The translations under genes were made by a program, and so were the position numbers. The notes under the pieces were generated by a model that did no database searches, had not been told where the DNA came from, and saw only the letters and a list, made by a program, of their open reading frames with translations. Shown one piece after another: positions 50,460-52,316 of a stretch of DNA of 64,000 nucleotides (within the stretch, counting starts at the first letter, position 1; each line of letters opens with the position of its first letter). The stretch is from IMG/VR virus record IMGVR_UViG_2563366911_000001. One strand, given 5' to 3'. This stretch comes from a virus. Its lineage: Duplodnaviria; Heunggongvirae; Uroviricota; Caudoviricetes.

Positions 50460-51148
50460 GCTGCACCATCACCTTTCACTTTCATCAATGTCAGGTTTCC
50501 GCAAAATACGGCACCAGTGTCGATATACTGCTGATTCCAGAATGTCTTCGGGCTTTTCACCGGAGTGTGACCAAAGATAAAACGATCTGCGCCCGAAATT
50601 TCGCCACCAATATCATCCATCGAATCACTGATACGCTCGCGCGCCCAGACAACGTTGAAAAGCGGCACCTCCTTACCGAATTGGTATTCATTATCCGGAT
50701 AGTCGGCATGGGCTATAACGATAGTTTCTTGCCCGGTGTTCAACTCAATGATATAGGGCAGACGCTTTACCAGCTCCACCAGCGCCCAGGCTAATATTTC
50801 CTGATCAGTGTCCAGCATGAAGAACCATTGTCCGCCATTCATTAGCCAGTTATTCACGTTGCCATCTGGACTTAACGCATCAATCATCAGCCGCTCATGG
50901 TTCCCCATCACTGCCCTGAACCAGGGCATCTGCAATAGTTCCAGACATTCGACATTTTCAGTACCGCGATCGATAAGGTCGCCGACCGATATCAGTAAAT
51001 CCTGCGCCGGGTCAAAATCCACACGATGGAGTTCGGACATCAGTCTGGTGTAGCAACCATGCAGATCACCAACAACCCAGACATTCCTGTATTTGGTACC
51101 GTCGATACGGTGATAAATTGTGGGTGCCATCATGTATTCTTCAGCCAT
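50456..51148 (-). CDS. Calcineurin-like metallophosphatase (Ser/Thr phosphatase or ApaH type)
   Basis: GDLHG, GDLIDRG and GNHE motifs. Confidence 0.85.
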
Positions 51149-51756
51149 TCTTTAAGAGTCATCTGCGGAATACCTCCCATTTTCCCGCATGAAACAACGT
51201 CAATCTGTTCACGCGCAGACTGGAATAACAAAGGCAGGTGACTTAGATTTTTTGGCGTGCCGCCGGAGTGAACGCGTGGTTCTTGTGTAGCGTCAACGCC
51301 CACCAGGGCGACATGTTTGAATCCGATATGGAAAGCCAGGTTCAGAGCACCATATGCACTATTGCCGCTGGCAATTTCATTCTCATCTTCGCAAAGGCCG
51401 AAATGTGCGGACCAGCGCCACGCCCACCACTCGGGAGAATTCGTATTTTTTGGCTCCATGCCGCGTTCAGCCACACGACGGAAGCACAGAACGCCATCTC
51501 TGACTTCACGTTCTTTAACATCGGGTAGTGCCATGCAATAACAAACACCACGGCGACGGCGGCCACGACCAACGCGCCGCATATTGTCTGGGGATGGATC
51601 AAGGGTGAAAAAATAAGAAGCGCGGTTAAGCCAGTCGATGGCCCCATTGACCGCTATAATCGGCACTCCGCGCGGCGCAACAAAGTTTGCGGCGCTTGGG
51701 CCACTGCCGACGATAATAACGCGATCACTGCCTCTAAATTTATTCTTGGGAAACAT
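51130..51756 (-). CDS. GT42/DUF115-like transferase (paralog B)
   Basis: VIIVGSGPS...IIAVNGA and [26 protein letters not shown]. Confidence 0.5.
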
Positions 51757-52316
51757 TGAATTGCACTGCTCCTACTTGCATTCAAAATATGTAAATCTGC
51801 GTGTTTTTTGCGGGTATCCAGGAACTGCTGTTGCCATTTTGAAATAGACACCTGCGTTGGATTCCGTAGGGCTTGAGGGTGCGCGCCATGCCAATGAAGG
51901 CCGTTTTGCAGAGAACAGTCATAGCCGACTAATACCACTACTTCAGCCCCTGATTCAGCAGCCAGACTGATAGCCTGCGCGCCGCTATTTACCCCTTCCG
52001 CCGGTCCACAATATCGCCTGTACTCCAACGAAAATGATTTCGCCGCCGCCAGGTTGGCTGTCACTTTGCGGAATCTCCCTCCCGGTATGGTGGATCCGTA
52101 TTGCTTCCACCATGACAAATCACCGGCGTATAAGGCATAAATGTCATCGAACATCTGCCAGGAATTGTTAACCGCGATGATTGAACAGCCAGTTTTTTCT
52201 ATAGCAGCACAGTCCTCACGAGTGAGTGACGGACCGCTACCGACACAAAAAACAGTCCTAGTCGCCCTGGGTGGTATGTTCATTCTCAGCTGCAAATTCA
52301 GCCTCCAGGCGAGCAT
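51654..52316 (-). CDS. GT42/DUF115-like transferase (paralog A)
   Basis: VFCVGSGPSL...IIAVNNSW and NSGAQAISLAAESGAEVVVLVGYD; overlaps paralog B by 103 nt. Confidence 0.5.
   Translation of the reverse strand: MLAWRLNLQLRMNIPPRATRTVFCVGSGPSLTREDCAAIEKTGCSIIAVNNSWQMFDDIYALYAGDLSWWKQYGSTIPGGRFRKVTANLAAAKSFSLEYRRYCGPAEGVNSGAQAISLAAESGAEVVVLVGYDCSLQNGLHWHGAHPQALRNPTQVSISKWQQQFLDTRKKHADLHILNASRSSAIQCFPRINLEAVIALLSSAVAQAPQTLLRRAECRL

Follow-up and report, generated by a model that had tools for sequence, protein, structure and literature searches.

The window analysed here is a stretch of 64,000 nt from a Caudoviricetes virus record (IMG/VR record IMGVR_UViG_2563366911_000001) and represents a P1-type phage-plasmid; a megablast search with positions 50400–53100 matched P1, P7, SJ46, RCS47 and other Punavirus genomes at 97.6–99.6% identity. 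The present study concerns two neighbouring genes on its complementary strand, 51654–52316 and 51130–51756, which are named pmgO and pmgP in the curated P1 records AF234172/NC_005856 and hdmB and hdmC in P7 (AF503408). The genes share 103 nt in different frames (51654–51756), the downstream open reading frame (ORF) lying in the -1 frame of the upstream one (52316–51756 = 560 = 3 × 186 + 2). In P1 pmgO is located at 79592–80254 and pmgP at 80152–80778, and the 103-nt overlap is annotated in P1 and P7 alike; the overlap is already known, having been part of the curated annotation of P1 from the AF234172 record onwards. When compared with the pmgO-pmgP pair of phages P1 and P7 (AF234172, NC_005856, annotation of Lobocka et al. 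2004; AF503408) the DNA of the window is 97.6–99.1% identical over 2.7 kb with equal relative coordinates, and no substantive difference was found. The region 51100–52350, used as a query of 1251 nt, is 100% identical to the E. coli plasmid NZ_LR882054, and 587 plasmid records of PLSDB contain related DNA, query coverage reaching 80% or more in 550 of these.

A first-pass annotation, made from the sequence of the window, had described the two ORFs as tandem paralogues that overlap by 103 nt in different frames, with the conserved GSGPS motif of the downstream protein inside the overlap, so that no later start could remove it. These observations held. The motif (PmgP aa 17–21) is encoded within the shared segment, and no in-frame ATG, GTG or TTG occurs between the ATG at 51756 and the motif. 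Direct BLASTP of PmgO against PmgP aligned the N-terminal motif only (E 0.003), and a profile-profile comparison of the two families with hhalign gave 96.9% probability (E 1.6e-10, 162 columns). The features of the region are collected in Table 1.

Table 1. Features of the pmgO-pmgP junction and of the surrounding operon; positions refer to the window
Feature	Position	Strand	Description
pmgO (hdmB in P7)	51654..52316	(-)	220 aa in the P1 annotation; GSGPS encoded at 52227-52241
pmgP (hdmC in P7)	51130..51756	(-)	208 aa; distant PmgO paralogue with inserted subdomain; GSGPS encoded at 51694-51708
Core overlap	51717..51756	(-)	40 nt; pmgO frame encodes conserved C-terminus, pmgP frame encodes poorly conserved, low-confidence N-terminus
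pmgO run-on tail	51654..51716	(-)	63 nt; 20 codons and TAG (51654-51656); out of frame over the part of pmgP encoding beta1-GSGPS
Shine-Dalgarno-like AGGAG	51769..51773	(-)	12 nt 5' of the pmgP ATG; AGG-AGC codons of the conserved PmgO 'SR(S/R)'; putative function
TAG stop, pmgP frame	51772..51774	(-)	6 codons 5' of the pmgP ATG
A_AAT_TTA heptamer	51735..51741	(-)	X_XXY_YYZ type, pmgO frame; candidate -1 slippery site in P1 only
pmgN	52258..52413	(-)	upstream gene of the same C1-controlled operon; TAG 52258-52260 inside pmgO codons
ppp	50456-51148	(-)	lambda-type Ser/Thr phosphatase; 19 or 4 nt shared with pmgP
pmgQ	49758-50459	(-)	phrog_1962 'glycosyltransferase'; ppp/pmgQ overlap 4 nt

Conserved core of the overlap

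The P1-like loci that were fetched yielded 181 full-length copies of pmgO-pmgP without gaps, which represent 77 haplotypes with 164 variable sites. None of the 77 haplotypes alters the length of either ORF and there are no indels at the junction. Two gapped copies have their changes away from the junction; both lie in pmgP, where one copy has lost 1 nt from a T6 run and the other 12 nt in frame. Outside the overlap both ORFs are under purifying selection, with synonymous to nonsynonymous changes of 62:19 in pmgO and 63:29 in pmgP.

When analysing the junction in relatives of P1, it was found that the position of the pmgP start is fixed within the pmgO codons. The pmgP ATG (51754–51756) takes its A from the last position of a PmgO Gln codon and its TG from the beginning of the conserved Cys codon in the CFPR motif, and the same geometry is present in every adjacent pair apart from one natural fusion, either as NNA TGT TT or, with a GTG start, as ACG TGT TT. 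It is kept in 11 divergent junctions, these being P1 itself, L156, L159 and L160 (Salmonella/Klebsiella-type), L087 (Pantoea alvi), L235–L238, L260 and L112 (a prophage in a Microbulbifer metagenome-assembled genome), and it persists down to protein identities of 37% for PmgO and 47% for PmgP. The conserved domain of PmgO runs about 12 residues beyond the pmgP start (CFPRxxLExxIx), and the 40-nt core of the overlap is therefore obligatory and ancient. The shortest overlaps seen in relatives end exactly at the core boundary.

The constraint in the core lies in the pmgO frame. Across lineages the first 12 overlap codons are conserved in this frame and variable in the frame of pmgP, and residues 1–10 of PmgP have a predicted local distance difference test score (pLDDT) of 56 in the AF2 model, against a mean of 92.4 for the protein. 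Among the 77 haplotypes no polymorphism was found in the first 50 nt of the overlap. As an out-of-frame overlapping pair pmgO and pmgP are genuine: the proteins are real, the overlap is unremovable and it is conserved in relatives.

The run-on tail

Beyond the core the pmgP frame is nearly invariant across lineages (IIV[GA]SGPSA), while the pmgO frame varies and is broken by stop codons. Where the first of these falls determines the overlap, which measures 40 nt in L235–L238, 49 nt in L087, 70 nt in L156, L159 and L160, 100 nt in L260, 103 nt in P1 and 133 nt in L112. All nine variable sites of the overlap in the 77 haplotypes are situated in its distal part. Read in the pmgO frame one of them is synonymous and eight are nonsynonymous, a pattern significantly different from the 62 and 19 in the rest of pmgO (Fisher p = 2e-4), and read in the pmgP frame six are synonymous and three nonsynonymous, which does not differ from the 63 and 29 in the rest of pmgP (Fisher p = 1). 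The AF2 model of PmgO, with a mean pLDDT of 87.6, is of high confidence through the LEAVIALL helix, after which the score drops to 64 and then 51 over the last 19 residues.

To judge the overlap length, a recoding simulation was run in which the PmgP protein was held fixed and its codons from number 15 onwards were redrawn synonymously with the local codon usage in 20,000 trials. The simulated overlaps had a median of 100 nt before the pmgO frame closed, and 48% of the trials gave 103 nt or more. The observed length of 103 nt is no more than chance would give.

A different reading would be that the whole 103-nt overlap is functional and that the 21-residue tail of PmgO is a selected overprinted peptide, for instance a docking segment for PmgP. 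Tails of similar length, or longer ones, do occur in L260, in L112 and in some stand-alone PmgO homologues, and the position of the stop is identical in all 77 P1-like haplotypes. Close relatives nevertheless stop 11, 18 or 21 codons sooner, and tails resemble each other only where they mirror the conserved DNA coding for GSGPS. Eight of the nine tail polymorphisms alter a PmgO residue while mostly sparing PmgP, the model is of low confidence in the tail and chance yields such a length about half of the time. We regard a functional tail as improbable, and as a candidate it was rejected on the polymorphism pattern, the variable stops, the low pLDDT and the recoding simulation. The tail evolves without constraint in the pmgO frame, and the whole is an ordinary overlap consisting of a conserved 40-nt core and a 63-nt run-on that arose by chance.

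Long out-of-frame overlaps between adjacent co-directional genes of bacteria and phages can arise by stop-codon drift, while the usual co-directional overlaps are of 1–4 nt (ATGA-type). The pmgO-pmgP overlap is like other overlaps formed by stop-codon drift in having a short conserved core lengthened by lineage-specific stop loss and complementary constraint in the two frames, but unlike the usual 1–4 nt its core is 40 nt long and is kept across hosts as divergent as Escherichia, Pantoea and Microbulbifer.

Free-standing proteins and natural fusions

Homologues of PmgO (51 matches, 180–205 aa) and of PmgP (328 matches, mostly ~200 aa) are overwhelmingly single-domain proteins of 180–220 aa. 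Among contigs representing one genome per species, a relative of PmgP was found within the fetched flanks (at most 4 kb on each side) in five of the 71 loci bearing PmgO; four of these hold adjacent pairs and the fifth, L145, has the order pmgO-pmgQ-pmgP.

Only one protein, P0051, encoded by phage L004 on a 61.9-kb Logan phage contig, joins PmgO and PmgP in a continuous ORF (376 aa). A search with P0051 revealed no other protein covering both halves among 70 word-index matches and among the best 150 of 2,133 representatives from a library of 1.84 billion proteins. A split two-domain gene would have homologues that are mostly one continuous ORF, and within this search P0051 was the only such PmgO-PmgP fusion. 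The junction in P0051 is end to end: it follows the complete C-terminus of PmgO without any overlap, and a Shine-Dalgarno-like GAAGGA and an ATG are still present at the join. The fusion is therefore unlike the product that a frameshift repair in the P1 sequence would give.

Other combinations were also seen, namely PmgP-PmgQ fusions (P0235, P0319), tandem PmgO-like domains (P0289, P0291) and, in P0177 and P0212, a class I methyltransferase joined to a PmgP-like or PmgO-like domain. The natural fusions suggest that PmgO, PmgP and PmgQ work together or belong to one pathway, with the free-standing form still being the rule.

Translation of pmgP

The explanation that we find best overall, and consider very probable, is that pmgO and pmgP are separate overlapping cistrons, with a core and a run-on, with an initiation of its own for pmgP and with products of the Maf/DUF115 type. 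According to this model the two genes would be co-directional cistrons of a C1-repressed operon, genuinely overlapping out of frame, and pmgO would be read at least ~40 nt into pmgP since the pmgP start lies in the conserved Cys codon of the CFPR...LExxL segment. The core would thereby pair a constrained C-terminal helix of PmgO with an unconstrained N-terminal tail of PmgP, and in P1, where the pmgO frame meets no stop for 20 more codons, the result would be a disordered, unselected tail and the 103-nt overlap. Most likely pmgP initiates on its own at the ATG at 51756 using the AGGAG embedded in pmgO, and in relatives a purine-rich equivalent, GGAG or AAGGA, is located at the same distance from the pmgP start. 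Ribosomes translating pmgO may keep the start region of pmgP unfolded, giving a loose coupling with initiation de novo.

Several points weigh against this model. Independent initiation at ATG 51756 is something we infer from the sequence, the 12-nt spacing between AGGAG and ATG exceeds the usual optimum, and AGGAG could be a mere by-product of the conserved Ser-Arg codons. P1 also has a heptamer that qualifies formally as a -1 site and is suitably placed. Finally, L004 encodes both domains as a single 376-aa ORF, and DUF115-DUF115 and PmgP-PmgQ fusions exist as well, and a covalently linked form must therefore be functional somewhere.

Two further modes of translation were considered for pmgP. 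Re-initiation after termination of pmgO is unlikely as it would need back-scanning over 100 nt. A hairpin that sequesters the ribosome-binding site until it is opened by translation of pmgO was rejected; the small UUGAAU/AUUCAA stem of the P1 minimum free energy fold is down to ~4 bp in L156 by our own check of the pairing. A literature search found no proteomic or ribosome-profiling data on PmgO or PmgP.

In the pmgP frame a TAG precedes the start codon by 6 codons and closes the -1 frame, and any fusion by frameshifting must therefore arise between this TAG and position 51654. Programmed -1 frameshifting by a fraction of the ribosomes at A_AAT_TTA would yield a PmgO-PmgP fusion beside the separate proteins, and the shifted product of ~45 kDa would contain ...CFPRINLRGSDR.... 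The geometry is suitable, since pmgP is in the -1 frame of pmgO and the heptamer both fits X_XXY_YYZ and lies inside the sole permissible window, after the TAG and before the pmgO stop; in addition the minimum free energy fold has a stem beginning 8 nt 3' of the heptamer and a natural in-frame fusion exists in L004. In the -1 frame of its downstream ORF and in the X_XXY_YYZ heptamer within the overlap of P1 the junction resembles E. coli dnaX (tau/gamma) and the tail assembly chaperones G/GT of phage lambda. Differing from both, the heptamer is not conserved here, there is no stimulatory structure, and the downstream ORF has its own start and encodes a complete protein that also occurs on its own.

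Of the ten divergent lineages with the overlap, nine lack the heptamer, its position being occupied by A_AAT_CTG in L156 and L159 and by no X_XXY_YYZ sequence in L160, L087, L235, L236, L238, L260 and L112. Direct reading of the L237 sequence showed a different in-frame heptamer, T_TTA_AAA, two codons 5' of this position. With a probability of 1/256 per codon, we estimate that chance alone places a heptamer of this type in about 15% of windows of 40 codons. The fold of the 181-nt region is not more stable than those of its shuffles (z = +0.49; 133 of 200 shuffles at least as stable), and in L156 the predicted long-range stem has a changed 3' arm. Moreover, the shifted product would be without the conserved LExxL helix of PmgO, which the natural fusion of L004 retains, and PmgP, with its own ATG and Shine-Dalgarno-like element, is free-standing in most genomes. 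Programmed frameshifting was rejected on the unconserved heptamer, the fold statistics and the deletion of the conserved helix that a fusion would entail, and we consider it very unlikely in P1.

A more elaborate scheme would have the embedded start fix the stoichiometry of an obligate PmgO-PmgP heterodimer, with low-level frameshifting at A_AAT_TTA adding a covalent fusion of the L004 type in P1 and with the products acting as a machine for glycosylation of the host envelope or of phage proteins. This too we consider very unlikely.

The first-pass annotation had left two readings side by side, genuinely overlapping genes or a frameshift, real or from sequencing, that splits a two-domain protein, and of these the former is right and the latter wrong. 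That one two-domain gene was split by an error of sequencing or assembly, or by a recent frameshift that turned it into a pseudogene, is effectively refuted: a fused homologue, P0051, exists and homopolymer-indel variants of pmgO (P0002, in an A6 run) and pmgP (L083, in a T6 run) are found in databases, but the frame arrangement at the junction is constant and free of indels throughout the 77 haplotypes, the genomes of P1 (two strains) and P7, sequenced independently, carry the overlap in their annotations and related DNA is in the plasmid records described above, the overlap is kept in lineages of just 37–78% protein identity, both ORFs are under purifying selection and the halves are normally free-standing proteins of ~200 aa. 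Homologues with one continuous ORF, which had been named as the observation that would speak against overlapping genes, came down to P0051 alone; none was found elsewhere in the matches and representatives searched.

Variant copies of the genes

A variant of PmgO, P0002 (174 aa, 48 members), shifts at or near an A6 run at ~51800–51812 (...CGCAAAAAACAC...) into the pmgP frame and ends with ...KTRRFTYFECK* at the TAG at 51772–51774; P0014 and P0016 are further frameshifted forms. All three may stem from sequencing errors in homopolymers or else from pseudogenisation in nature, the gene being non-essential. In some P1-like elements ~1.7 kb is inserted in pmgP at about base 715 of the pmgO-pmgP segment, just 3' of the overlap, examples being L015 4685–6370 (IMGVR_UViG_2923350032_000001) and plasmid NZ_OY754444 (H48), where an IS5-family transposase is listed under the match. 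The protein P0181 (387 aa, from a JGI/Logan contig of 7.3 kb) is 99% identical to P1 PmgP over residues 1–186 and continues with ~200 unrelated acidic residues, which points to either a rearrangement or an assembly chimera 3' of pmgP.

Protein family, fold and putative function

Both PmgO and PmgP contain an N-terminal GxGPS loop followed by (A/I)VN, together with an NSG...G(Y/V)D core. In an alignment of 21 diverse homologues of PmgP, G19 and P20 of the GSGPS motif never vary, and at least 90% of the sequences retain S18 and S21. Scores against PF01973 (MptE-like/DUF115) are below threshold, 20.9 bits for PmgP and 23.4 bits for PmgO compared with a gathering cut-off of 34.6, and several homologues carry a precomputed PF01973 match.

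Foldseek searches of the PDB gave the Maf flagellin glycosyltransferase 5MU5 as the top match for PmgO (E 2.2e-5, query-based template modelling score (TMq) 0.57, probability 1.00), and for PmgP MptE 8SD5 (E 1.6e-3) and 5MU5 (E 1.7e-3, TMq 0.55), with probability 1.00, followed by sialyltransferases of Pasteurella and Campylobacter; the template modelling scores of 0.45–0.57 are only moderate. A family-profile sequence search of solved structures returned no matches for PmgP and only matches with E > 0.3 for PmgO. NCBIfam gave no match for either P1 protein; for the fused P0051 there was a weak N-terminal match to WaaZ (Kdo III transferase; E 3e-4, 20 bits against a cut-off of 200).

In fold PmgO and PmgP are like Maf 5MU5, PF01973 and the GT42 enzymes Cst-I/II, but compared with Maf they are minimal proteins of ~200 aa that are without its flanking domains and score below the Pfam cut-off. 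Taken together, the predicted structures and the family profiles identify the two as distant paralogues with a Maf/DUF115 (MptE-like, GT42-like) fold, and they probably act with PmgQ as sugar or nucleotide-sugar transferases. The term 'transferase' is a reasonable inference for both. In PHROGs PmgO belongs to phrog_4603 ('alpha-2,3-sialyltransferase'), PmgP to phrog_2111 (unknown function) and PmgQ to phrog_1962 ('glycosyltransferase'); PHROG and RefSeq use the label 'alpha-2,3-sialyltransferase' purely on the basis of similarity.

Genes for PmgQ, GT9 proteins and methyltransferases are recurrent partners of the pmgO/pmgP family, and in other prophages the relatives of PmgO adjoin either GT9-like and methyltransferase genes or PmgQ-like genes. 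Direct reading of L099 2411–6070, a prophage of Pantoea stewartii, showed a stand-alone PmgO homologue located after an endolysin gene and a lysis-like ORF, overlapping a downstream GT9 (heptosyltransferase-like) gene which is followed by an S-adenosylmethionine-dependent methyltransferase gene. From its gene content this cluster looks like a moron-like sugar-modification cassette.

After knock-down by CRISPR interference pmgO, pmgP, ppp and pmgQ are listed as non-essential (PMC10695390 table, citing Gonzales 2022); the main text of Gonzales 2022 does not name pmgO or pmgP. In a study combining knockouts with the virion proteome, PmgC and PmgG were the only Pmg proteins associated with the virion (PMC9024508), and the knock-downs and knock-outs caused no plaquing defect (PMC10695390, PMC9024508). 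The label 'putative morphogenetic function' for PmgO and PmgP is unsupported.

The operon around the overlap

In the P1 annotation the operon has the order pmgN-pmgO-pmgP-ppp-pmgQ and is preceded by Oppp, an operator for C1, and by PpmgN, a predicted promoter. Judged from the N-termini of homologues, the ATG at 52283 (MNIPPRATR...) is more likely to be the start of pmgO than the annotated ATG at 52316. The pmgN TAG is located three codons before TVFCVGSGPS of PmgO and no in-frame start exists between this TAG and the motif, and pmgN and pmgO must therefore overlap too, by at least 26 nt; the overlap is 26 nt with ATG 52283 and 59 nt with ATG 52316. The start of ppp also differs between records, being ATG 51148 in the P1 record (overlap with pmgP of 19 nt) and ATG 51133 in that of the Prokaryotic Genome Annotation Pipeline (PGAP; ATGA-type, 4 nt). 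The whole pmgN-pmgQ operon is a chain of overlapping genes.

Annotation of the locus and significance

Automated annotation mishandles the pmgO-pmgP locus, PGAP models often truncating both genes or leaving pmgO unlisted. In NZ_CP069570 (L267, 497–997 and 985–1521) PGAP starts pmgO from Met55 (166 aa) and pmgP from a GTG 30 codons into the gene (178 aa), which corresponds to position 51666 of the window. The resulting overlap is just 13 nt, and these starts remove the invariant GSGPS loop from both proteins. For NZ_LR882054 (L266) pmgO is absent from the PLSDB gene table, which omits pseudogenes. The truncated models form protein clusters of 96 to 373 members each, P0003 (pmgO, 173 members), P0054 (pmgP, 373 members) and P0053. 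A typing error in the note of P1 pmgM, 'norphogenetic', has found its way into RefSeq, where the product 'norphogenetic protein' is given for homologues of PmgO and PmgP from Escherichia, Salmonella, Citrobacter, Enterobacter, Erwinia, Pantoea and Ochrobactrum.

As an overlap the pmgO-pmgP junction offers little biological novelty, being an ordinary operon overlap that is longer than usual and has been extended by stop-codon drift. The name 'morphogenetic' is misleading for these genes: they are non-essential, and PmgO, PmgP and PmgQ look like a small sugar-transfer module that could matter for the biology of the P1-host surface.

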